Assembly (NCBI GenBank): GCA_041686025.1
Contig: JAWLEP010000029.1
Location: forward strand, 2,776-38,233
DNA length: 35,458 bases
DNA from: Candidatus Fermentibacteraceae bacterium
GTDB taxonomy: Bacteria > Fermentibacterota > Fermentibacteria > Fermentibacterales > JCC-6
Direction of reading: 5' to 3'
Position numbers and translations under genes: made by a program. Shown in pieces: positions 184 to 27,952 of this stretch. Positions within the stretch are counted from its first letter, which is position 1; the number at the start of each line of letters is the position of its first letter. The notes below the pieces were generated by a model, which saw only the letters and a program-made list of their open reading frames with translations, searched no databases and was not told where the DNA came from.

Positions 184-1161
184 TCAGCTCTTCTTGAGGA
201 CGACGTCGACGCCCAGCTCGGTAACGGGAGGGCTGGCGAACATGTCCGCGCAGGCATCGATCTGCTCGCGAAGCTCGACCAGCAGGCCGTCCTCCGAGGG
301 GATCGAGACGCCCTCCGGAGCGGTTGCGCGAATGCCGTCCTCCGTTGCCAGGTCGCAGGCGGTTCTGAGACGAAGGCCCGTTCTCAGAAAACGGCGGATC
401 TTGAAGAGGGCGAGGTTCACCAGGAGGTCGGTGGCGGTATCGCCCAGGTCGTAGCTGCGCAGCCGGGCGAGGTCGATGTTGAAGTAGGCCCTGATGTCGC
501 CGGCGGTGTACTCCGTCCTCGTATAGGGCACGTTGCTGTAGACGTCACGCTGCTCGGCTTCCGTCCGCAGCCGGCCCTGGGGGTCGAGGGGGTTGTTCTT
601 GACGCCGCCGGAGACCGCCTCGTTGACGTCGCTGGCCTCTATGAAAGCGGATACGGCCCTGGGGATCCTCATCCTAGCGTCTTTCTTTCCCTCCTTCTTG
701 ACGTTGGAGAGGAAGATACCGTGCAGTAAGGAATTCACGTCGTATTTGAAGAGCGTCTTCGCCAAACGGGTCCAGTCGATAAGCCCTGCGCTTCGATAGC
801 CAGCGTCCTCTAAAAACCTGTTAAGGAAGTCCTCTTGCGAGATGATGTAGGGCGAGTTGAGGCGGTGCGCCTCCAGCAGGGTGGTTGTCTTCACCTGGGC
901 GTCGCCCTCGAGGTTCGCGCGTACGTATGACAGGCCCTCCAGCTCGGGGATGATCTCCCCGTCGGGGGTCATCACCGCCGCCTCCAGCCTGTTGGCCATC
1001 GACTGCGAGGATTCCACCAGCAGCTTGCGGGTGCCGTCGGCCAGCTCGTAGGTGGCCGCGCCGAGCTCGGCGAAGCCGGTGGGCTGGAAGCGGTCTCCCT
1101 GGACGGGGCGGAGCTTCGCCTCGGCCAGCATCCTCGGAGCGTCGTTGAGCTTCTCGATCAT
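184..1161 (-). CDS. csb1: Type I-G CRISPR backbone protein Cas7 (Csb1)
   Basis: Motifs DRFQPTGF, LLVESSQSMANRLE, EAHRLNSPY, SGGVK, LRLRTACDL. ATG at 1161 overlaps the csx17 stop (ATGA) and has GGAGG upstream. Confidence 0.92.
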   Translation of the reverse strand: MIEKLNDAPRMLAEAKLRPVQGDRFQPTGFAELGAATYELADGTRKLLVESSQSMANRLEAAVMTPDGEIIPELEGLSYVRANLEGDAQVKTTTLLEAHRLNSPYIISQEDFLNRFLEDAGYRSAGLIDWTRLAKTLFKYDVNSLLHGIFLSNVKKEGKKDARMRIPRAVSAFIEASDVNEAVSGGVKNNPLDPQGRLRTEAEQRDVYSNVPYTRTEYTAGDIRAYFNIDLARLRSYDLGDTATDLLVNLALFKIRRFLRTGLRLRTACDLATEDGIRATAPEGVSIPSEDGLLVELREQIDACADMFASPPVTELGVDVVLKKS

Positions 1162-3479
1162 TCCTGAACCTCCTTCTCCTTGAGAACAAGTGACTTGAGC
1201 GTGTTCGTGTCCCAGACGGGGAAGAGCAGTGCGGCTGCGAGCCTCACCGGGTCGCAGTCGCATTCCCAGGCAAGCGAAAGGACCGGCAGCTCCGCCACGT
1301 GCCTGAGCCTGGCGGCGGCAAGGTCGCACGCCTCGGATACCCTGCCAGCAGCTGCCAGCCTTAGCACCCTTCCTTCCGCGCCTACCGGTGAGTCGTGGAT
1401 CCTGGGGGTCATCATCAGCTTAAGCAGCGCCCAGCTGCGGGAGATCGGCCTGGGCTCATCCTCCCCGGGCGGGCTGGTCCTCATGCCGGAGTCCCATCTG
1501 ACAAGCGTGAATCCGAAGAGCAGCTCCTCGATTGCGGTCTCGTCCACCAGGCCGTAGATGAAGGGCGAGACCTGACGCGATGAGACCTTGAGCATTGCGT
1601 CGAGAGGCAGGTTTCTCGCATCCAGCCTGCCCATCTCGAGAATTCGCCGGGAGAGCACGGAGATCATCCTTTCGGGCAGACTGGAACCTGTCCAGCACTG
1701 CTGCGAGTCCCCCCACTCCCAAGGGCGCCTTGGATCCACTCCCGATGTGTTGCTGCGGATCGGGCCGACTCCTCCCGTACCCCGGATCGAGGAGAGGGAG
1801 GCGGCCAGAGTCGCCTCCGGGCAGGCGGGGAGGCACTGCCGTACCCATTCCGGTGAAAGCCCCGCAAGGGGGCGGGAGAGGAATCCTTCCGCGCCGTGGT
1901 TCATTCTGGCCAGCCTCATCTCAAAGCGGCCCAGGGCGCGGACGAGTCTCGTGAAGGCGAGGGCAGATGGTCTCCGGCTGGTCTGGAACAGCTCCTCCTC
2001 TATCCTTCGCCTTGCCGTGGAGAGCGCTGCCGGGACATGGTCGCCGTAGCGACGGATGAAGCCGTCCATTCTCTGCAGTATGGGATCCAGCTCATCCAGA
2101 AGCGCAAGCTCAGGACGGTAAGCTACGTCTACCTCCCCGGCCGGCAGGGCCACGTAGCTCTTTCCCCTGCGTACGACGAATGCGTAGCGGGTGAAGCTGG
2201 AGAGGCCGCGGTCGACGCCCAGCTGGCCCAGCGCCCGGCAGAAGTCGATGCCGTTTCTGGCCTGCCTTCTGCCCAGGCTGCTGCGGCCCTCGGCGAACAG
2301 AAAGGCCACCTCACCCAGGGTAGCGGGATTCGACCAGGTGGGCAGCCAGGTCTCGGACTGTCCGTCATCCTGCTGGCTGTCGGAGGAGAAGCCCACGGGG
2401 CTGAAGTCGACGGTGAAGGGAAGGGAGGCTTCCTTCCAGCCGTCTGAGGTGCTGCGCTTCGTGGCCGAGGCGGCCAGCAGCAGCGCTCCCTCGAACACGA
2501 AGAGGTACTCCCAGGGATTGATCTTGAACTTCTTCGTCTCCACGTCTTCGCCCATGTTGTAGCCGCCTGCCCTGCCCGGGTCGAACTGGCCTATGGCCCA
2601 GGAGTCCAGGCCGTCGACGGGTGTGTTGACCAGGGTTGCCCTGAGCAGCCTCTGGGATCCTTCGTCCTCCCCGAGCAGCAGCTGGCTGGCAATGGCCATG
2701 TAGTTCCTGCTGAAGTCCAGGTTGCCGTCGTTGCCTCCCGTGCCCAGCAGTCGGAAGTAGGAGGGGGACTCGCTCGAGGTGATGGCAATGGCGGCGTCGA
2801 ACCAGCGCAGGGACTCCTCCGGGAGCCTTGCCCGACACGCGCCGAGGTTCTCCTTCAGCAGGTTGCGTCGATTCGTGGAGAGGGTTGTCACCCCCTTCTT
2901 GACCTTGCTCTTGAGCCCTTTCCAGAAGGGGGCATGGGATTCGTCCTCCTCCTCGATCCGGCCCGAGAGCAGCTCCATGACGTCCACCGAGGGAGCGTCG
3001 AGCTCCGGGTTCCCCGAGATGATTCCCTCGATGTCGTCCAGGTGGTTGTGGGCCTTTCCGATCTCGGACTTCGAACCCTCCGCGGCCAGTATGCGGAGCC
3101 GGTCCATGAAGTCCCCAAGGCTGCCCAGACCCATATCCAGCTCCGGCCATGTACGGACGCGCCGGATAACTTCCCGGTAGTCCCGGAAGCGGGGATCGTC
3201 GGATGCCATGATCCTGTCCATTCCCTCGCGGTTGTCGTTGGGCCAGAAACCGCTGCCTCCGTTCCAGGGGGATACTATCGGTGTAGGTGCGTAGCGGTTC
3301 AGGATGAAGTCGATGAGGCCGTCAAGGCTCATCTCCGTCTCCAGGACGAATGCCCCATCCTTCCAGAATCCGGCGGCGGCATGATCGGCCTGCTCGGCGG
3401 TGATCCTGAAGACGGCGAGGGCCTTGAGATAGCTTGCCAGGGGCTGGGTGGCACATCCCTCAAGCCTTATCCTGCTCAC
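1158..3479 (-). CDS. csx17: Type I-G large subunit Cas8g (Csx17)
   Basis: Motifs LEGC..PLASYLKAL, SPWNGGSGF, LLGTGGNDGNLDFS, NPWEYLFVFEG, ETWLPTW, LGVDRGL. GTG start at 3479 with GGAGGT RBS. Lies between cas3 and csb1. Confidence 0.9.
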   Translation of the reverse strand: MSRIRLEGCATQPLASYLKALAVFRITAEQADHAAAGFWKDGAFVLETEMSLDGLIDFILNRYAPTPIVSPWNGGSGFWPNDNREGMDRIMASDDPRFRDYREVIRRVRTWPELDMGLGSLGDFMDRLRILAAEGSKSEIGKAHNHLDDIEGIISGNPELDAPSVDVMELLSGRIEEEDESHAPFWKGLKSKVKKGVTTLSTNRRNLLKENLGACRARLPEESLRWFDAAIAITSSESPSYFRLLGTGGNDGNLDFSRNYMAIASQLLLGEDEGSQRLLRATLVNTPVDGLDSWAIGQFDPGRAGGYNMGEDVETKKFKINPWEYLFVFEGALLLAASATKRSTSDGWKEASLPFTVDFSPVGFSSDSQQDDGQSETWLPTWSNPATLGEVAFLFAEGRSSLGRRQARNGIDFCRALGQLGVDRGLSSFTRYAFVVRRGKSYVALPAGEVDVAYRPELALLDELDPILQRMDGFIRRYGDHVPAALSTARRRIEEELFQTSRRPSALAFTRLVRALGRFEMRLARMNHGAEGFLSRPLAGLSPEWVRQCLPACPEATLAASLSSIRGTGGVGPIRSNTSGVDPRRPWEWGDSQQCWTGSSLPERMISVLSRRILEMGRLDARNLPLDAMLKVSSRQVSPFIYGLVDETAIEELLFGFTLVRWDSGMRTSPPGEDEPRPISRSWALLKLMMTPRIHDSPVGAEGRVLRLAAAGRVSEACDLAAARLRHVAELPVLSLAWECDCDPVRLAAALLFPVWDTNTLKSLVLKEKEVQE

Positions 3480-5802
3480 GATCCACCTCCTTTCCCGCAG
3501 CGCTTGCCCGTTCATCGGCCACCTTTATCAGGGCTTCCAGGTATGCCAGTCTGAACGGTCCGAGGCTGTCTCTGAGGGAGATCATCCGCGAGAGCCAGCT
3601 GGCGCCCCGGTAGCCGCGGCCCAGTTCCATCAGCGACAGGTCGAGCAATGTGCGGGGCATCGTTACACCGCCTCCCAGATCCGTCTGCGGAAGCACATCC
3701 CCATCGTAGATGCCCCGGGCAAAGCGCGTCTCGGGATCGTCCGGGGGACGCTCGGTTGGAAGCGAGCGAATCGACAGCCTGACCTTCCCGTGGTGCGCGG
3801 CGGCAAGATACGCTTCCAGATCACTCATTCCACAGGCCAGAGCGGCCAGGCCGGATGCCAGCTCATGGCGGAAGCCCCTCCTGTCGTAGCGTGAGAGGGA
3901 AGGCCCCTTCGCCATTGATTCTCCGGGATTCCGCCCCAGTGCCTTCTGGAAGACTTCATGCGCCTTTCCGGCGTCGTGCCAGCGGGCCGCGGCGAGGAGG
4001 GCGCTGCGATGCTCCTCATCGATGAAGGGAAGCTGTTCAATAACGGACTCCAGCTCGCTGACCACCTGGTCGCTGTGCTCGGATACGGTCTGGAAGGGCG
4101 CCCTCGCATACGAGTCCGAGTCGTTGGAGTCCGAGACCTGTCCGGATGGGGGGAGGGGCGGTGCGGCCCTCCGGCCCTTGCCGGTCCATCCAAGATCGCT
4201 GTCGTAGCCGCCGGAGCTGCAGGGCAGAAGAACCGTCATTCCCGGCCTGAGCCGATGGGGACTGGCCCGTGTCCATGCCCCTTCCAGATAATCCCAGACC
4301 CAGCCCTGCCTCCTGCCCAGGAACTTCGAGAGATCGCCCACCGGTACCGAACACAGCTCTTCTGCGGAGGGGCGTTCCTCGCTCTCATCGGGCGGCTGTT
4401 CAATATCCCTCCAGAAGACCTGAAGATCGGTATCCTCTGTGTCCCTTATGAAACGGGATATGTCCAGGTCTGCCCCGGCCAGGTCGGGCGTTGTGTCGAA
4501 CAGCTCCAGGATGTCGCGCCTTCGGGGAATGTCGCCGGTCTTCGGCTTCCGCTCCACAGGCGGCAGGGACCGCGGCGACGCGTTGGAGATGGCGCGCAGC
4601 TTTTCTACAGAAGCTTCGATTTCTGCGGGCTCATAGGGCGCGAGACTCTTCGGCCTGGAGAGGTCCGGGGGAATCCAGAGAATGTGGGCTGCATTCGACT
4701 CTCCGTATCGATTGCACCTGCCGAAACGCTGAACCATGGATGGCCAGGGCGCGGTATCCGTAACCAGAAGCCTTGAGGTGATGTCCACTCCGGCCTCGAC
4801 AACCTGTGTGGAGACACAGATGCTTCCGGCGGGGCCGGGTTCGGACATGGCCCTGTCCATGGCGGCCGCCCTGTCCGGTGGACGGAACCTGGAGTGGAGA
4901 AGCACAGCTTCGGCATCCGGCTTGAGCTTCATGAGCGATTTGTAGATCCTGACCGCCCTCCGGACGGTGTTGACCACGCAGAGCGTTCGTGTTCCCGGTG
5001 TATGCCGGCTGAGAATCAGCTCGGCTTCAAGCCTCCCCTTTCCGTCAGGCATGAAGCCAGCCTCCTCAAGGGGCTTGTTTGCCTCTGCGCGCGGGCGTAT
5101 CGCGGGCGATGACCAGTCGGCCTCGGAAGGAGCAAGCAGATCGCTTTCCGGGGAGTGATCTATCGTTTTCAGCCACTCAGGCCGTACCGTGGCGCTCATC
5201 CAGAGGGTATGGGCGGGCCCGAAAACACCCATCTCGCTGCGAAAGGCCTGCAGCTGGGCGGAAGTGTCGAGGCCTGCGCCCATGAGCTGGACCTCGTCCA
5301 TGACCCAGAGCGTGTCGTTGTTGAGAAGGCCGAAGTGCAGGGGCCATCGGTAGCGGCTCATGGAGTATCCGCGGTTGAGCCCGCGGGAGAGGAGCATGTC
5401 CTGGGTGCCGACGATCATCGCCTCACCCTCGGGGGCCAGGTCCCATCGCGAGTCGACCTCGCCACCCATGAGCAGGCATACGGCAATACCCTTCCCGCCC
5501 GGCTGCTTCGCCAGCAGGCCGAGACGATCCAGCCAGCGCTCCATGGCCTGGCAGGTCTGCTCGGCCAGCACGCGCATTGGCAGACAGTACACAAGTCTCC
5601 TGGGAGTGGCGTCTCTGATGGGGTCAGCGGCGTATTTCCGGCGCCACAGCCATCCGAGGACGGCTGCCGCCGTCTTGCCCATGCCGGTGGGAACGGAGAT
5701 CGTCTCGGGCAGAGGGCTGGACCCGGCCAGCCTTCCCTGCCAGGGGAAGGGTCTGAAGCCTGTTGCTCTTTCGAAGAAGGTTGCGAAGTCCATTTCCGTC
5801 AT
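3460..5802 (-). CDS. cas3: CRISPR helicase-nuclease Cas3, type I-G architecture (SF2 helicase then C-terminal HD nuclease)
   Basis: Walker A PTGMGKT, DEVQ, SAT, HSRF, TQVVEAGVD, QRFGRCNR. C-terminal HD motifs WHDAGK, RHELAS, AHHGK, ADERAS. ATG at 5802 is preceded by GGAGG. Confidence 0.95.
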   Translation of the reverse strand: MTEMDFATFFERATGFRPFPWQGRLAGSSPLPETISVPTGMGKTAAAVLGWLWRRKYAADPIRDATPRRLVYCLPMRVLAEQTCQAMERWLDRLGLLAKQPGGKGIAVCLLMGGEVDSRWDLAPEGEAMIVGTQDMLLSRGLNRGYSMSRYRWPLHFGLLNNDTLWVMDEVQLMGAGLDTSAQLQAFRSEMGVFGPAHTLWMSATVRPEWLKTIDHSPESDLLAPSEADWSSPAIRPRAEANKPLEEAGFMPDGKGRLEAELILSRHTPGTRTLCVVNTVRRAVRIYKSLMKLKPDAEAVLLHSRFRPPDRAAAMDRAMSEPGPAGSICVSTQVVEAGVDITSRLLVTDTAPWPSMVQRFGRCNRYGESNAAHILWIPPDLSRPKSLAPYEPAEIEASVEKLRAISNASPRSLPPVERKPKTGDIPRRRDILELFDTTPDLAGADLDISRFIRDTEDTDLQVFWRDIEQPPDESEERPSAEELCSVPVGDLSKFLGRRQGWVWDYLEGAWTRASPHRLRPGMTVLLPCSSGGYDSDLGWTGKGRRAAPPLPPSGQVSDSNDSDSYARAPFQTVSEHSDQVVSELESVIEQLPFIDEEHRSALLAAARWHDAGKAHEVFQKALGRNPGESMAKGPSLSRYDRRGFRHELASGLAALACGMSDLEAYLAAAHHGKVRLSIRSLPTERPPDDPETRFARGIYDGDVLPQTDLGGGVTMPRTLLDLSLMELGRGYRGASWLSRMISLRDSLGPFRLAYLEALIKVADERASAAGKEVDREQDKA

Positions 5803-6113
5803 TCTGTCCTCCATTCGGAATGGATGTCGCCACGAGGGGAAACGCAGAAGGCGCGGCCCGGCAGGCGGGAATACCCGGGCCCATTTGCCGGAAGGCTGTT
5901 CTGAAGATGTACGGTGTGTGCGTTAGGCGGAATCGAGACCATTCTACCTCTCATCATTGCGCATTTATTCACTATTAGATACATGATCGGTCGATTCACC
6001 GTCAACGCTGGCCCTCTTTGCCTTGCCGAGGCCGCCCATCGCTCGAGAGGGCCCCAGTCGGATGAGAGACTCAATCCGCAGAAACGGAGAAGAGTCGAGC
6101 AAGACGGGTGCCA

Positions 6114-21662: not shown

Positions 21663-23717
21663 TCAGCGGCGCCGCAGCGCCAGGACCGCGCCGGGGACCG
21701 CCATGATCCCGGCAACGGCCAGCAGGGAGAGGGCGGCCCCCAGCAGGGGGAAGAGCACCAGGGGGAGCAGCACTCCGCCGGCGGCGCTTCCCGAAAGGTC
21801 GGCCATCTCCAGCAGCCCCACGTTTCTCCGTCCCCCTCCCGCCGCCTCCGCCGCCAGAGGGAACTGCGCCCCCGCTGCCGCTCCCAGGACCAGCAGCCCC
21901 GCCAGGGCGATTGCGGCCAGGGGCGCGGTGGTGAGGACCCCCCAGTCGTAGAGGGCGCAAACGGCCGCCAGCATCAGCACCGCGCCCAGGGCAACCGCGT
22001 GCACCCTGCCCAGCCCCGACATCCTGCCCCTCTCCCCCAGCCAGGCGCCAGCCGCCAGCCCCCCCATGGCGCAGGCGGAGACCAGGCCCACCAGCGAGTA
22101 GGAGTACCCCAGGGTGGACTGGATGATCAGTATCACCGCCGTCTCCGCCGATATCTCGCCCAGCCCGATGGAGGATAGGGAGAGGCACAGGGAGCGCCTG
22201 CCGCGGTGGATCATGGCTATTCCCAGCAGGAGGCCGCACACCCCCAGCAGCGCCCAGGGAGCGGGCCCCAGGCCGGACCTCCCTCCGGTGCGGACCCTCC
22301 ACAGCTCCCCCGCCGTCTCCACCGCCGAGGGTCTCAGGTCCCGGTTGGGCCTGGCGCTCACTCCGGAAAGCTGGTCGGCGAAGGCCGACAGCCGCCATTC
22401 GGAGAGCTCGAACTCCAGCGTTCCCGGGGTCAGCCAGACGGTCTCCGCGCCCGACTCCTCCAGAAGGCGTGCCAGCCGGTCTCCGCCCACCCGCAGGGAG
22501 TCCCGGCGGGAGAAGAGGAACAGCGCTCCGCCCAGGGGGATCACCCGGGCGGCGGAGAACCGCTGCCTGCCGGCGGCCATGACGGCCTCCACCAGCACGG
22601 CGTCCCGGGGCAGCATGCGGTTGCGGCCCACGTGGAAGCCGAAGCTCAGAACGCCCCCTTCGGAGAGCCTGCGGGAGGCAAGCTCCATGAGCTCTGCGGT
22701 GTAGAAGCGGTTGGCGGCCAGGGAGAGGGGCAGGCCGCCGTCGATGATCACCAGGTCGGCGTCATCCTCCATTCCCGACAGCCAGGCCCTTCCGTCCCCC
22801 TCCACCAGCGTGACCTCCCCGGGAAGACGGTCCTCGCCCACCAGGGCCCGGCCCGTGAGGGCCACCATCACCACCTCCTCCACTCCCGGCCAGTCCGCCA
22901 GCAGGGAGGCGGTCGCCGTGCTGTAGCCGATGTACACCACCCTGCGGGGGCCGGCCAGGAGGAGGGGCACCACCGCAGCGGTCTCGGATGTCTCGGGTGT
23001 GCCGGCGGAGCCCACCAGGACGCCGCCCAGGTAGACGGCGGGCTGTCCCCCCCGCGGGACCACGGAGACCTCCCCGTAGGCGGAGGGGAAGCTCCGCGCG
23101 TCTTCCCCGGGCAGGCTGGACTCCATGACCTCCTGCAGCCTGTCGGGAAGCCCGGAGAGGCCGATGCCCAGGGCGGCGGCGGCCAGGAGAGAGGCGGCCG
23201 GGACGGAGGCCGCGAGAAGACCGGCCCCGGCCAGTCCCAGCCCCGCCACCAGCATCCACGGCGTAAGCAGGTGAGGCGAGAGGAGCAGAAACGCAAGGCC
23301 GCCGGCCACCGCCCCCAGGGCCTCCAGCATGTAGGCCCGGGCGGCCCGGAGCAGCTCGAAGGGCTGGACGAAGACCAGGCCCGCCAGCATGCCGGAAGGC
23401 AGGACGCACAGGGAGGGCGGAAGGGACCCCGCCCGCAGCAGCACGACGGCCAGGGCGGCTGCCGGAACCAGGAGCCCCGCTCCCAGCCCCCAGCCGAGGC
23501 GGGGGCTTCGCAGCCGCGACCCCAATGCCGCGCCCAGCCCCGACCCCAGGAGCCACCCCGCCAGCAGCAGGCCGGTCTGGAGCTCCGCCAGCCGCTGGCC
23601 GTAGAGGCCCTCCCGCAGCAGCACCGACTGGCTGAAGACCGAGATCAGGCCTCCGGCGAGGGCGGCCATTCGGGGATGGATTCGCCGGCCTCCCGTGCCG
23701 CTAGCCTCCCTCTTCAC
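21663..23717 (-). CDS. Membrane-fused spermidine-synthase-like protein (TM block, methyltransferase-fold domain, TM block), degenerate
   Basis: Hydrophobic N- and C-terminal blocks flank SAYGEV, DGRAWL, DLVIID, NRFYTAE, GGVL, NRDLRP. Start uncertain (23717 GTG or 23669 ATG). Confidence 0.72.
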   Translation of the reverse strand: MKREASGTGGRRIHPRMAALAGGLISVFSQSVLLREGLYGQRLAELQTGLLLAGWLLGSGLGAALGSRLRSPRLGWGLGAGLLVPAAALAVVLLRAGSLPPSLCVLPSGMLAGLVFVQPFELLRAARAYMLEALGAVAGGLAFLLLSPHLLTPWMLVAGLGLAGAGLLAASVPAASLLAAAALGIGLSGLPDRLQEVMESSLPGEDARSFPSAYGEVSVVPRGGQPAVYLGGVLVGSAGTPETSETAAVVPLLLAGPRRVVYIGYSTATASLLADWPGVEEVVMVALTGRALVGEDRLPGEVTLVEGDGRAWLSGMEDDADLVIIDGGLPLSLAANRFYTAELMELASRRLSEGGVLSFGFHVGRNRMLPRDAVLVEAVMAAGRQRFSAARVIPLGGALFLFSRRDSLRVGGDRLARLLEESGAETVWLTPGTLEFELSEWRLSAFADQLSGVSARPNRDLRPSAVETAGELWRVRTGGRSGLGPAPWALLGVCGLLLGIAMIHRGRRSLCLSLSSIGLGEISAETAVILIIQSTLGYSYSLVGLVSACAMGGLAAGAWLGERGRMSGLGRVHAVALGAVLMLAAVCALYDWGVLTTAPLAAIALAGLLVLGAAAGAQFPLAAEAAGGGRRNVGLLEMADLSGSAAGGVLLPLVLFPLLGAALSLLAVAGIMAVPGAVLALRRR

Positions 23718-24195
23718 GGGACCCCGAGTCCCTCCGGGCCCGCGGGCCGGCGGTCTCCAGCCACCCGCACCTGATGCCCTCTTTCCTGTCGCGGTCGGTG
23801 TAGGGCTTGATGTCCAGCAGGGGCGTTCCGTCGGCCATGTCCACCCCCCGCACGTGGAGGAACCTCCCGTCCCTGCCCAGCAGCGTGACCACGGTCAGGG
23901 CCAGGGGATTCACCCGGTAGGGGCTGCGGGTGGCGAACAGCCCCCGCGGCGGGGGTATGGAGTGCCTGGTGGGACAGCAGGTGAGCTCGCAGCCCTCGGA
24001 CCTGTGAAACAGCCAGATGACGAAGAGGTGCGAGAAGCCCTCCACGTCCTGCAGGGCCTTCTCGTATCGGCTGCAGATCTCAAGGCGGCCCTCCGCCTCC
24101 TCCGGCTCCTCCACGTCCCGGGGTCCGGAGAAGGGCGTGTGGGCCACGCCTATGGGGACCAGCCGGGGAGAGTCTCCGCCCCGCTTCGCCGTCAT
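23701..24195 (-). CDS. tsaA: TsaA/TrmO-family SAM-binding protein (tRNA m6t6A37 methyltransferase-like)
   Basis: PIGVAHTPF, GFSHLFVIWLFH, GLFATRSPYRVNPL, DMADGTPLLDIKPY. ATGA overlap with the upstream gene. Confidence 0.9.
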   Translation of the reverse strand: MTAKRGGDSPRLVPIGVAHTPFSGPRDVEEPEEAEGRLEICSRYEKALQDVEGFSHLFVIWLFHRSEGCELTCCPTRHSIPPPRGLFATRSPYRVNPLALTVVTLLGRDGRFLHVRGVDMADGTPLLDIKPYTDRDRKEGIRCGWLETAGPRARRDSGSREEGG

Positions 24196-25694
24196 TGCGC
24201 GCCGGGGGAGAAGACCTGGGCGCCGAAGCGGAACAGAAGCGCCCGGTCCGGGTCGTAGCCGTCCGGCGGAAGGCCGGCCTTCATGGCCAGGTTGCGGACG
24301 TACTCCCTGCGGTCCCAGCCCTGCTCCACCGGGACCTGGGGCAGCAGGACCCCGGACCTGCCGCCCTGGATCAGGTACAGGCCGTCCTCTCCCACCTCCA
24401 CCTGCGAGGTGTCCTCCACCAGCCGCAGCGGAGACAGCACCGATATCTCCAGCCGGATCTCCTCCAGCTCGTCCCGGGAGATGGGGGGGAAGCGGGGATC
24501 CTCATCGGCCGCCTGCCGCGCCATCCGGGCCACCGCCTCTCCCAGGGGCTGGACCGGGCGTATGGAGCCGATGCAGCCCCGGAGCTCGCCCCCCCGGCGG
24601 TAGGTAACGAAGGCTCCCCGGGGAAGCTGCAGCTCGGGGTCGGCCGGCTCGTACTCGCCGGGGGGTTCGTCCGCCGCCGCCCTCTCCAGCTCTGCGCGGG
24701 CCATCTCGCACAGCCTCTGCCGGGTCTGCGCGGAGATCTCATCGCCGGAGTCACCCGGCGGCACGGTGGTGACAATGGCGGCATAGCCCACGGTGCGGCC
24801 CGGATCGCCGCCGCGGTCGGCGCTGTTGGACAGCTCCAGCAGCCGGCTGCTCCATCCGCGGTGCAGCCGGTTGTAGTAGAGGGCGGCGGTCATGGGAAGC
24901 CTGCCGCAGGCCAGCGTGGAGACCCCCGGACGGGATGCCCCCGCCGTGAACGACGCGAACTCCTCCGGGTCCCCCTCCAGGTAGCTCTCCACGGTCCCCG
25001 AGTCCACCGTCTCGGCCACCTCCGCGGTCGGGTAGTGAGAGAGGTCCGAGCTGGCCAGCACCAGAACCCGTCTGTCGGCTCCCTCGGCGTACATCAGCTC
25101 CGCCAGGAAGGCCAGGTCGTCGGTGGGGCAGCCGCCTATGAGGACGGGCACCACCGAGAAGTCCCCGGGCAGGACCCTCTTCAGGAAGGGAAGCTGCACC
25201 TCTATGGAGTGCTCCCGGACGTGGGGGTCCCGCCCCAGCTCCGCGGCCGGATGAGCCTCGGCCAGGCGCCGGGCGGCGGCCCGGGCCACCGGGACGCTCC
25301 CCAGAGGCGTGGCGCAGGAGTCTGCGTCCAGCACCGAGATGCCCCTCAGCGGGTAGCTGTGGGCGGGGGCCAGGATGTAGACCAGGTCGAGGCTGTCGCC
25401 GGAGAGCGCCGCGTAGACCTCGGCTGCGGCGGGAGCGGAGAAGCGGTACCCGGCGTGGGGGACCACGGCCGAGATTATCCGTCCCTCCCCGACCTCGGCA
25501 TCGGTCATGGCCAGGTACCCGTCCACCGCCACGGCCAGCTCGTCTGCGCCCCCGGGGTAGAACTGCCCGGCAAAGGCGGCGGGCCTGGTCCAGGCAGGCG
25601 GGGAGGGGGACGACACCTGGTCGGGGTCTGGGTCGCTGTCCCCTCCGGCGCAGCAGGCCAGCAGGATCAGTCCCAGGGCCGCGGTGCGCATCAT
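24192..25694 (-). CDS. amrB: AmmeMemoRadiSam protein B-A fusion (MEMO1 plus AMMECR1) with lipoprotein signal
   Basis: MEMO1 motifs RPAAFAGQFYP, PHAGY, EHSIEVQLPF, SSDLSHY, VGYAA. AMMECR1 motifs GAFVT, LRGCIG, DPRFPP, EISVLS, GVLLPQV, KAGL. N-terminus MMRTAALGLILLAC. Confidence 0.92.
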   Translation of the reverse strand: MMRTAALGLILLACCAGGDSDPDPDQVSSPSPPAWTRPAAFAGQFYPGGADELAVAVDGYLAMTDAEVGEGRIISAVVPHAGYRFSAPAAAEVYAALSGDSLDLVYILAPAHSYPLRGISVLDADSCATPLGSVPVARAAARRLAEAHPAAELGRDPHVREHSIEVQLPFLKRVLPGDFSVVPVLIGGCPTDDLAFLAELMYAEGADRRVLVLASSDLSHYPTAEVAETVDSGTVESYLEGDPEEFASFTAGASRPGVSTLACGRLPMTAALYYNRLHRGWSSRLLELSNSADRGGDPGRTVGYAAIVTTVPPGDSGDEISAQTRQRLCEMARAELERAAADEPPGEYEPADPELQLPRGAFVTYRRGGELRGCIGSIRPVQPLGEAVARMARQAADEDPRFPPISRDELEEIRLEISVLSPLRLVEDTSQVEVGEDGLYLIQGGRSGVLLPQVPVEQGWDRREYVRNLAMKAGLPPDGYDPDRALLFRFGAQVFSPGAQ

Positions 25695-25873
25695 CCCGCC
25701 AGCTTCCTGTAGTGGCGGGCCCTCCTTCTGGAGAGGCGGCCCTCCCGGCCCGGGTCTTCGCCCCCCGTCCGCAGGGGCCACAGGGCCCCCAGTCCCGCCA
25801 GCCCGGCCAGGCCGGCGGCGGCCCTTCTCAGGAATCTCCTTCTGTCCATTCGGCCTGAACTCTTCGGTCTCAT
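25691..25873 (-). CDS. 60-aa twin-arginine-signal small protein
   Basis: MRPKSSGRMDRRRFLRRAAAGLAGLAGLGALWPL...LSRRRARHYRKLAG. ATGA overlaps at both ends (amrS stop and amrB start). Confidence 0.75.
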   Translation of the reverse strand: MRPKSSGRMDRRRFLRRAAAGLAGLAGLGALWPLRTGGEDPGREGRLSRRRARHYRKLAG

Positions 25874-26847
25874 TGCCAAACCCCCGGTATCTCACGGCCG
25901 CACTCGGCGCATCTTCGGTCTTCGATTCCGTTCTCGACGATGCGGAAGCGGTCCCTCCGCACCACCGCCCGTCCGCATTCGGGGCAGAAGGTGTCGTCCC
26001 CCCGGCTGGTGACCACGTTGCCCACGTATACGTACCGCAGGCCGGCACCGGACGCGATCTCACCCGCCCGCTCCAGCGTCTGCAGCGGCGTGGGCGGCCG
26101 GTCGGTCATCCTGTAGGTGGGGAAGAACCTGCTGAAGTGCAGGGGCACGTCGGGCCCCAGGTTGTCCGCGATCCAGGAGCAGAGCTCCTCCAGGTCCTCC
26201 TCGGAGTCGTTCAGCCCCGGCACCACCAGGTTGGTTACCTCCAGCCAGACGCCCATCTCCCGCAGGACCTCCAGCGTGTTCAGCACCGGCCCCACGGTTC
26301 CGTGGCACACCGTGCGGTAGTAGTCGTCGCGGATGCTCTTGAGGTCAACGTTGACCGCGTCGATAAGGGGGGCCAGCTCCCGCAGCGGCCCCTCGTTTAT
26401 GTAGCCGGCGGTGACCATGATGTTTCCCATCCCCGCCTCCCGGGCCAGCCGGGCGGTGTCCTCCACGTACTCGTAGAAGACGATGGGCTCGGTGTAGGTA
26501 TAGGCCACGGATGAGCAGCCGGTCTCCTCGGCCCGGGAGACCACCTCTCCGGGCTCCATGCGGTAGGGGGGCACGTCCTCCGGAGCGGCCTGGGATATCT
26601 CCCAGTTCTGGCAGAACTCGCAGCCCAGGTTGCAGCCGGCGGTGGCTATGGAGAAGGTCTTCGTCCCGGGCAGGTAGTGGTAAACGGGCTTCTTCTCCAC
26701 CGGATCCACGTGGGCGGCCACCGGCCGGCCGTAGACCAGGCTCACCAGCTCGCCGTCCAGGTTCATCCTTACCCGGCAGGTGCCCCGCTGGCCCTCCTCC
26801 AGCCGGCAGGTGTGGGGACAGAGGAGGCACTGAACGCTTCCCGACAT
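25870..26847 (-). CDS. amrS: AmmeMemoRadiSam radical SAM enzyme
   Basis: CLLCPHTC, GTCRVR, DPVEKKP, CNLGCEFCQNWEISQ (CxxxCxxC), YTYTEP, NVDLK, HFSRFFP, YVYVGNV, terminal CPEC/CAEC. Confidence 0.95.
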   Translation of the reverse strand: MSGSVQCLLCPHTCRLEEGQRGTCRVRMNLDGELVSLVYGRPVAAHVDPVEKKPVYHYLPGTKTFSIATAGCNLGCEFCQNWEISQAAPEDVPPYRMEPGEVVSRAEETGCSSVAYTYTEPIVFYEYVEDTARLAREAGMGNIMVTAGYINEGPLRELAPLIDAVNVDLKSIRDDYYRTVCHGTVGPVLNTLEVLREMGVWLEVTNLVVPGLNDSEEDLEELCSWIADNLGPDVPLHFSRFFPTYRMTDRPPTPLQTLERAGEIASGAGLRYVYVGNVVTSRGDDTFCPECGRAVVRRDRFRIVENGIEDRRCAECGREIPGVWQ

Positions 26848-26848
26848 G

Positions 26849-27121
26849 CTACCGCCGCTCCTCCCCTGTGGAGTCCTCCTCCAGCTCGATCGACCACTTC
26901 GCAGGATGCCGGGTGAGAAAGCCCCGGCGGATAAGCTCCCGGAACCGCTCCATGTCCACGAAGGAGGGCGGCCTCACCGCCACCGTCCGGGCCGAGTCGG
27001 CCCTGGAGACTATCTCCCAGAGGATACCCGTCCGGCCGGTGCCCGTTCCCCCTTCGCCGGGGTCCCGGGCAGCGGCGGCCACGGTGAGCGCCAGGGCCAT
27101 TGGCAACAGCGTACGTTTCAT
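26849..27121 (-). CDS. 90-aa secreted hypothetical protein, first gene of the amr operon or split amrS N-terminus
   Basis: C-terminal part of track ORF 26849..27892. Sec-type signal MKRTLLPMALALTVAAAA; stop is 1 nt before the amrS ATG. Confidence 0.6.
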   Translation of the reverse strand: MKRTLLPMALALTVAAAARDPGEGGTGTGRTGILWEIVSRADSARTVAVRPPSFVDMERFRELIRRGFLTRHPAKWSIELEEDSTGEERR

Positions 27122-27175: not shown

Positions 27176-27952
27176 ATGGCAAGGTCTTCCTCCATAGAGG
27201 CTTACGTCACGCTGAGGTTCTACGCCGAGCTGGGCGACTTCCTGCCTGAGGAGAAGCGGGGAAGGGCCTTTCGCCGACCGCTGCCCGCCGGAGCAACGGT
27301 GAAGCACGTCATCGAGTCCGCCGGCGTGCCCCACACCGAGGTGGAGCTGGTGCTCCGCAACGGCGAGTCGGTGGGGTTCGGGGACCGTCCCCGGCCCGGC
27401 GACCGGCTGAGCGTCTACCCCGTCTTCGAGAGCCTGGACGTCTCGCCCCTGGTGCGTGTGAGGGAGGAGCCCCTGAGGAAGACGCGCTTCGTCCTGGACG
27501 TTCACCTGGGCAAGCTGGCGCTGATACTCCGGCTTCTGGGCTTCGACGCCCTGTTCCCCGGCGACTGCGACGACGGGGAGCTGGCCCGCATCTCCGCCGA
27601 GACCGGCAGGATACTGCTCACCAGGGACATCGGCCTGCTGAAGCGCAGCGCGGTTACCCACGGCTGCTACATCCGCTCCGACGACCCCACCGAGCAGGCG
27701 GGGGAGGTGCTGGACCGGCTGGACCTCCGCGGCCGCGTGGAGCCCTTTCGCCGCTGCGCCCGCTGCGGCGGAGAGCTGCAGGAGGTGGACAAGGAGGAGA
27801 TACTCCATCGGCTGGAGCCCCTGACGAAGAGGTACTACCACCAGTTTCGGACGTGTCCCGACTGCGGCAGGATCTACTGGAAGGGCAGCCACTACCCGGC
27901 CCTGAAGAAGCTCCTGGAAGACCTGGGTGTAGGCAACGACGACGGCGACTGA
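27176..27952 (+). CDS. Ubiquitin-like plus Mut7-C (PIN-fold) RNase domain protein
   Basis: LRFYAELGDFLP, GVPHTEVEL, FVLDVHLGKLA..LRLLGFD, RILLTRD, RCARC, CPDCGRIYWKGSHY. GGAGG RBS. Confidence 0.92.
   Translation: MARSSSIEAYVTLRFYAELGDFLPEEKRGRAFRRPLPAGATVKHVIESAGVPHTEVELVLRNGESVGFGDRPRPGDRLSVYPVFESLDVSPLVRVREEPLRKTRFVLDVHLGKLALILRLLGFDALFPGDCDDGELARISAETGRILLTRDIGLLKRSAVTHGCYIRSDDPTEQAGEVLDRLDLRGRVEPFRRCARCGGELQEVDKEEILHRLEPLTKRYYHQFRTCPDCGRIYWKGSHYPALKKLLEDLGVGNDDGD

Follow-up and report, generated by a model that had tools for sequence, protein, structure and literature searches.

In a stretch of 35,458 nucleotides from a Candidatus Fermentibacteraceae bacterium (contig JAWLEP010000029.1; hereafter the window), the gene of AmrS, the radical S-adenosylmethionine (SAM) enzyme of the AmmeMemoRadiSam system, is followed by an open reading frame (ORF) for a small protein with a twin-arginine (RR) motif. 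Our analysis suggests that this peptide is probably the detached leader of AmrS for twin-arginine translocation (Tat), which would export the folded enzyme as a hitchhiker. A preliminary description made from the letters of the window had pointed to a DRRRFL motif, a hydrophobic core, a linker and a tail at 25691-25873, to ATGA coupling on both sides as the mark of a genuine gene, and to the abrupt start of AmrS, its N-terminal segment seemingly missing. All of these were recovered here; the observation is confirmed, and the interpretation attached to it is supported computationally, by sequence comparison and modelling.

The peptide and the missing segment of AmrS

The genes amrA, amrB and amrS of the window score above the curated cut-offs of TIGR04335, TIGR04336 and TIGR04337 (AmrS at 406 bits against 220) and adjoin each other, amrA and amrB as one fused ORF at 24192-25694, which places the locus in AmmeMemoRadiSam. 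Unlike the usual system, AmrS is here headless, by which we mean lacking leader and N-terminal segment, and is flanked by two small unnamed proteins. It begins 6 residues before the first Cys with no export signal of its own, the TIGR04337 profile is matched only from position 10 of 349, and the own-frame score for the segment before the first CxxC is -3.1 bits. Among the best 120 homologs of this AmrS, 11 of which could not be parsed, 83/109 start at most 14 residues from the first Cys, while 26/109 have a leader ending in an LSxxEAxYYxxL-type segment.

The small protein following AmrS carries D-R-R-R-F-L at residues 10-15 and a hydrophobic core with a maximal 15-residue Kyte-Doolittle value of 1.57, and ATGA overlaps connect its start to the amrS stop and its stop to the amrB start. 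The start is ambiguous, with the protein database and the Atlas both using Met9 (52 residues); we favour Met1 because of the overlap with amrS. The ORF is a real, conserved gene. It adjoins the 3' end of amrS in 17/17 close-relative loci with downstream sequence (L001-L017, the window included), and the ratio of nonsynonymous to synonymous substitution rates (dN/dS) is 0.28 pooled and 0.12 over the last 14 columns (8 pairs, partly non-independent). A profile search of 1.84 billion representatives (50% clustering) yielded 43 matches at E<=0.001, 40 of them at most 75 residues long. R11, R12, F14, A59 and G60 are invariant in an alignment of 42 peptides; this alignment, inspected with no cleavage predictor applied, displays no conserved AxA column of the signal peptidase type. 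No library searched names either small protein flanking amrS, and an Atlas search with the peptide returned unnamed clusters only, with scores of at most 0.90. One locus, L007, has a 21-nucleotide unit repeated three times at the junction of amrS stop and peptide start, giving three possible starts.

Short ORFs in GC-rich DNA with many spurious frames, particularly one with an ambiguous start, may represent chance frames or artefacts of gene calling or assembly, here for instance a frameshifted amrS. Against this speak the dN/dS over the 8 pairs, the 40 short homologs, contigs of other studies that hold zero indels across the peptide stretch, and an offset between upstream ORF and amrS that varies by lineage, contrary to one programmed frameshift. 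An artefact is refuted in effect, its remaining chance being negligible. Contigs over the gene from two metatranscriptome runs were not counted, as contigs do not reveal transcription, strand or level.

The likeness of the tail to the N-terminal segment of AmrS, also proposed in the preliminary description, was borne out by alignment. In a 13-column profile of intact segments (33 of 34 intact sequences used, the columns chosen with the peptide already seen), the window tail scores 18.9 bits, ranking first of 29,093 stop-to-stop frame ends of the genome and being equalled by 0/500 shuffles; 22/22 close and 33/36 further peptides likewise beat shuffles at p<=0.05. Comparison of 42 peptides with 34 intact AmrS using hhalign gave a probability of 83.6% (E 8e-6) over leader and segment, and the peptide profile also matches intact Tat-type AmrS leaders in genomes G048 (two places) and G060. 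Moreover, 41 peptides and 63 intact RRxF leaders have median distances from RR to the end of 51 and 52 residues, respectively. Taken together, profile match, leader alignment and equal spacing mean that the peptide is best read as a whole detached leader.

Structure prediction is congruent with this view. Modelled together, the window AmrS and peptide residues 31-60 scored 0.90, as compared to 0.04 for the best of three controls, the mark for a complex being reached by 116/157 solved complexes and 2/215 mismatched pairs. The runs agree in at least 83% of contacts, with a predicted local distance difference test score (pLDDT) of at least 68 for the partner, and place peptide residues 54-56 against AmrS 5-9 and residues 50-52 against AmrS 34-36. 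These AmrS positions correspond to residues 80-84 and 109-111 in the model of an intact natural AmrS (P0118, pLDDT 94), beside that model's own segment, which forms strands 67-68 and 72-74 next to strands 80-82 and 108-111 (pairing judged from adjacency). The tail is thus predicted to occupy the slot that the segment would fill, and the model supports binding, in keeping with the earlier proposal that the peptide supplies the segment in trans.

The predicted interface leaves out Cys72, Cys76 and Cys79, which bears on a second idea of the preliminary description, namely that the radical SAM enzyme uses the peptide as substrate. The reaction might take place at the conserved Gly that ends the peptide, by analogy to glycyl-radical activases or maturases of ribosomally synthesized and post-translationally modified peptides (RiPPs). 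Structure searches by sequence and Foldseek returned no solved AmrS, and the nearest solved relatives of its core, in sequence and fold, are pyruvate formate-lyase activases (sequence E 5e-16; Foldseek E 6e-14), which act on a peptide glycine; in addition, 31/41 peptides end in Gly, types with unrelated tails included. However, 158/160 intact amrS, which should need the same substrate, have no such peptide beside them, and 10/41 peptides lack the terminal Gly. In intact AmrS the LAG-like residues contribute to a hairpin turn, the choice of the last codon is constrained by the ATGA overlap, and no Pfam domain of the SPASM/twitch or RiPP recognition element type is present on AmrS at E<=0.1. The peptide is predicted on the N-terminal part of AmrS and not at the active site; the sequence match to the activase moreover covers only profile positions 79-240 of 334, AmrS having extra Cys-rich N- and C-terminal parts. 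A role as substrate is therefore disfavoured, and we would be surprised to see it confirmed.

Distribution of the peptide and of TatC

We assembled 223 amrS hits from fetched loci, of which 49 were assigned as headless by eye. The loci were gathered through AmrS, taking the best 80 per scan of at least 598 confirmed, and the sample accordingly favours AmrS close to that of the window. Excluded from the counts were 17/223 hits with less than 200 nucleotides downstream, the duplicate or non-amrS loci L031, L038, L065 and L146, and loci without an amrS N-terminal hit, while the divergent paralogs L029, L030 and L033 were kept among the other copies. With an automatic rule (RRxF-like motif, hydrophobic core, 30-85 residues, at least 200 nucleotides downstream), a small ORF was detected 3' of 41/46 headless amrS but only 2/160 other copies, both of the latter being unrelated frames with segment scores below 0. 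By eye the peptide is found beside 43/46 headless amrS, the rule having missed L072 and L079. Hosts include Omnitrophota, Elusimicrobia, Nitrospiraceae, Syntrophales, Desulfomonilaceae, Planctomycetota and Lentisphaerales. Thus, the equivalent small ORFs sought beside amrS do exist after the headless form, across a number of phyla, and intact copies have almost none beside them. The peptide is then followed by amrB or amrB-A in 11/20 headless loci sampled for neighbours (39/106 candidate ORFs scanned).

Within the order of the window (47 genomes), full-length matches to the peptide occur in 18/18 genomes with headless amrS and 0/29 others; the negatives and genome G005 carry the weight of this comparison, since some of those loci had gone into the profile. 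An amrS tree gave 4 changes, which would mean that the headless form arose more than once; an approximately unbiased (AU) test did not bear this out. Related copies do not count as independent, and Fisher tests, which treat them as such, were set aside.

Two further families of RR small proteins were observed after headless amrS, directly so in L110, L116, L166-L169, L173, L181 and L190, and also in L117 and L172; their tails are of the types YPGxL..W.G and P.KP.DP..D(W/L)AG, ending in W-x-G or L-A-G, and neither type matches the segment.

The presence of TatC was then compared with the type of leader. TatC is encoded in the genome of the window (E 1e-62). Across 80 genomes, with leader classes from a crude pattern and genome completeness not given, TatC was detected in 40/43 with RR leaders, 3/19 with non-RR hydrophobic leaders, 4/5 with no leader called and 11/13 with headless AmrS (10/12 of those with the peptide). 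RR leaders and peptides thus track TatC, and the RR motif behaves as a real Tat signal, congruent with the Tat character ascribed to the peptide from the outset. TatC is also present in 18/18 module-bearing relatives, though likewise in 46/47 genomes of the order, and in 5/5 further genomes of the phylum of G053. RR-type leaders were found on 94/174 non-headless amrS copies sampled (crude pattern). In L173, tatC itself lies directly 5' of a headless amrS (2389-3132, plus strand; Pfam TatC, 198 bits).

A different pattern is seen in the phylum of G057 (L039-L060), where 22 of 26 genomes have close AmrS homologs bearing fused non-RR leaders and TatC was found in none of the genomes searched (0/26); nor was it found in G059. 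In L039-L060 and L021, AmrS is fused to a Sec-like or anchor leader with TatC not found, so that an iron-sulfur (Fe-S) enzyme bears a leader of the export type yet lacks Tat. Such non-RR AmrS in genomes without TatC imply that Tat is not essential to the AmrS family.

These genomes also enter into the question of whether the peptide, filling the same slot, might only tether or regulate AmrS at the inner face of the membrane, RR being a positive-inside anchor feature or a relic. Plain hydrophobic-leader AmrS in genomes without detectable TatC could mean that the leader is an anchor only; SAM and reductant, both needed for radical SAM chemistry, are cytoplasmic; and the cores of the peptides are somewhat more hydrophobic than those of intact RR leaders (median 1.88 vs 1.49). 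On the other hand, RRxF is invariant in 42/42 peptides and RR leaders follow TatC. A basic N-terminus inside combined with a single helix would direct the tail outside, so that after insertion it would have no hold on a cytoplasmic enzyme, and the AmrB-A encoded after the peptide has an export-type leader in most loci examined for leaders. Five intact RR-leader AmrS (L094, L156, L180, L184 and L205) furthermore have a CxxCH insert between segment and first Cys, a heme-c-type motif that is matured outside the cytoplasm but could also bind zinc. On balance, a mere tether seems unlikely.

Separately, a flavin mononucleotide (FMN)-binding, NapH/NosR-like 4Fe-4S membrane protein is encoded 5' of headless amrS in L069 (428-2026, plus) and L070 (5473-6795, plus), and is a candidate electron donor across the membrane.

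The upstream protein and a proposed route of export

A second small ORF, not noticed in the preliminary description, lies 5' of amrS and ends 1 nucleotide short of it. Its dN/dS is 0.36, and 0.19 in the part comprising helix and segment. The protein accompanies 28/49 headless amrS, including all 19 headless loci of Fermentibacteria, and RRxF was matched by regular expression in 0/20 aligned sequences. The copy of the segment in the window is degenerate, reaching 4.6 bits and rank 393 with the segment profile. Using hhalign, upstream ORFs and intact AmrS aligned with a probability of 1.2%, yet in the expected register, while only hydrophobic cores were aligned between peptides and upstream ORFs (7.5%). 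The structural model is poor (pLDDT 65, predicted template modelling score 0.30) and confident only at residues 51-80, and an Atlas search with the ORF gave nothing usable. That one programmed frameshift links upstream ORF and amrS was rejected, considering that the offsets vary by lineage and that amrS has its own Shine-Dalgarno-like site.

The upstream ORF lies in the place expected for the 5' half of a split gene, and one may ask whether its product is the true structural complement of AmrS, the peptide being a duplicate that acts elsewhere (e.g. on AmrB-A) or competes. Its sequence retains the helix found before the segment in anchor-fused AmrS, and the purifying selection and the unbroken presence in Fermentibacteria point in the same direction. 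However, the ORF is missing in 21/49 headless loci (some with little upstream sequence), its segment copy in this genome is degenerate, and lacking RRxF it would be unable to take a folded enzyme out by way of Tat, whereas the peptide does pass the test for a predicted complex. Six loci (L070, L077, L079, L140, L148 and L149) have a segment-type peptide as the only adjoining carrier of the segment. We consider it improbable that the upstream protein is the complement in place of the peptide. Rather, with the RR peptide in 43/46 loci and the upstream protein in 28/49, the peptide figures as the constant partner, to which the upstream protein is an optional addition.

Aggregated, the data favour the following route, in which the peptide acts as the Tat leader of AmrS. 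As the sequence shows, amrS has lost its leader and first segment, and the next gene encodes RRxF, core, linker and that segment, spaced as in intact Tat-type AmrS. In the prediction, tail residues 50-56 pair with AmrS strands 5-9 and 34-37 and so complete a small beta domain at the N-terminus, lying away from the CxxxCxxC motif. The complex would form in the cytoplasm after Fe-S loading and be exported by TatABC. Once outside, AmrS may work beside the signal-bearing AmrB-A, held by the hydrophobic core of the peptide. Finally, and speculatively, the upstream non-RR protein could, where present, take over the slot after export and serve as a dock. Peptide and upstream protein share what appears to be a single slot, and such a hand-over, if it took place, might explain the two copies of the segment. 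More broadly, a radical SAM lineage may have made its own N-terminal segment into an address tag that can be exchanged, with a minimal Tat subunit plugging into the folded, cluster-loaded enzyme to export it and, in many genomes, a second Tat-independent protein taking the slot outside; we hold this wider picture to be possible but doubtful.

Several points weigh against export of AmrS by the peptide. The supply of SAM and reductant outside the cytoplasm is unexplained, as is the placement of the Fe-S enzyme in genomes where TatC was not found and AmrS with a non-RR leader persists. The Tat-signal hidden Markov model (TIGR01409) is only marginally passed by the window peptide (17.2 bits vs a cut-off of 16.7) and reaches E<=0.05 in only 14/42 members. 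Three headless loci (L036, L125 and L196) have no adjoining peptide, and in 11 others the tails of the RR peptides do not match the segment (-5.6 to 1.4 bits) and no upstream copy is present. The segment is therefore not always supplied in this form, and in those loci either the slot is filled in another way or the segment is dispensable. The upstream protein holds a rival copy in more than half of the headless loci, which equals the score of the peptide in L018, L022 and L069 (17-19 bits). Regarding the model, halves of a split gene can pass the complex test through their likeness to the intact fold, and predicted AmrS monomers may be part of the training of the complex model. Lastly, the AU test does not reject that the headless form arose only once (p 0.265), and the co-occurrence counts may therefore come down to as few as 1-4 events.

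Because of their need for SAM and reductant, radical SAM enzymes are regarded as cytoplasmic. In headless copies the leader persists as a gene of its own, suggesting selection for export. Were the wider, doubtful picture of an exchangeable tag correct, AmmeMemoRadiSam would be an extracytoplasmic radical SAM pathway, and segment and slot would make up a portable plug by which folded cargo is exported through Tat. The proposal predicts where AmrS works and which partner must be co-expressed to purify the enzyme or solve its structure, and thereby opens a way into a widespread system whose function is unknown. It would also add a minimal form of Tat hitchhiking, in which the carrier completes the fold of its own cargo, and it points to a family of genes for 45-75 residues that annotation has left unnamed.

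Known systems and the surrounding locus

Tat hitchhiking is established for heterodimers such as Ni-Fe hydrogenases (HyaA/HybO with their large subunits) and formate dehydrogenases, in which a signal-less cofactor-loaded partner is exported bound to a twin-arginine partner (PMC10924467). Analogously, the peptide bears the signal and AmrS has none, with binding predicted and export probable. Unlike in those heterodimers, where the signal partner is a folded redox subunit, the carrier is here a piece of 52-60 residues without cofactor ligand that consists of leader and first segment of the very enzyme it would carry, a radical SAM enzyme.

The closest parallel in working is found in periplasmic [FeFe]-hydrogenases of the M2(D) type (NdHydAB, SoHydAB), in which a small Tat-bearing subunit accompanies a signal-less large Fe-S subunit, the former wrapping around the latter in NdHydAB (10.64898/2026.10.15.759383). 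The peptide belongs to neither the HydAB nor the hitchhiker families and is unrelated in sequence; an Atlas listing of a HydB cluster at 0.83 for the peptide is a lead only. HydB is about twice as long and presumably corresponds to the C-terminal part of monomeric hydrogenases, whereas in the AmrS system the split-off piece is N-terminal, its gene lies 3' of the cargo, and a second non-Tat copy is often found 5'.

Another small Tat protein beside a cofactor enzyme is TIGR02811 ('formate dehydrogenase region TAT target'), which we take to be a small uncharacterised family. It is matched by 9/42 peptides at E<=0.05 (best 4e-4), probably via the signal, while the window peptide has no match, and tail and neighbourhood differ. 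In the literature searched (AmmeMemoRadiSam, TIGR04337, TIGR02811 and others), with subscription papers including the 2019 system description outside reach, we found this peptide described nowhere. For Memo-AMMECR1-radical SAM systems, an eLife passage (PMC7159879) cites Burroughs et al. 2019, and the passages available of PMC11081632 contain nothing on bacterial operons.

The features of the locus are compiled below. A consensus scan found neither promoter nor terminator.

Features of the amr locus in the window (window coordinates)
Feature	Position	Strand	Basis or remark
Upstream 90-residue protein: hydrophobic leader without RR, amphipathic helix, degenerate second segment copy	26849..27121	minus	no Pfam/NCBIfam match
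Helix and segment of upstream protein, homologous to leader end of anchor-fused AmrS	26879..26956	minus	sequence comparison, model
Shine-Dalgarno-like GGAGGAG, 10 nucleotides 5' of amrS ATG, within upstream ORF	26858..26864	minus	sequence
Headless amrS, radical SAM enzyme of AmmeMemoRadiSam, 325 residues, first Cys at residue 7	25870..26847	minus	TIGR04337 406 bits, profile 10-333 of 349
Tat-type small protein, probable detached leader of AmrS	25691..25873	minus	60 codons + TGA; 52 residues if start is Met9 (25849)
Twin-arginine motif R-R-x-F, residues 11-14	25832..25843	minus	R11, R12, F14 invariant in 42/42 aligned peptides
Hydrophobic core of signal/anchor, residues 18-34	25772..25822	minus	sequence and hydropathy
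Tail, residues 47-60: copy of AmrS N-terminal segment	25694..25735	minus	predicted pairing with AmrS residues 5-9 and 34-37
amrB-amrA fusion (Memo + AMMECR1), 500 residues, lipoprotein-like leader	24192..25694	minus	TIGR04336 221 bits, TIGR04335 164 bits; lipobox by eye
trmO-like gene, ATGA-coupled to amrB-A	23701..24195	minus	TIGR00104 103 bits
Membrane protein, weak spermidine-synthase-like domain	21663..23717	minus	E 4e-4, far under cut-off

Membrane proteins similar to the product of 21663..23717 flank amr genes also in L077, L168 and L181. Two more amrS paralogs are present in the same genome (L032 and L033; G000:C18:43807-44814 and G000:C20:37095-38057), neither with an adjoining peptide, one having a hydrophobic leader with its own segment and one a short divergent N-terminus. 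In L065 (G082:C53:7050-9689), two intact amrS stand in tandem, both with non-RR leaders. Divergent from the amr operon, the window holds a gene for a ubiquitin-like Mut7-C RNase (27176-27952, plus), and at its other end CRISPR-associated genes (184-5814, minus) comprising a Cas3-like helicase/HD protein (3460-5814), an unmatched 785-residue ORF (1158-3515) and a GSU0053-family gene (184-1329).

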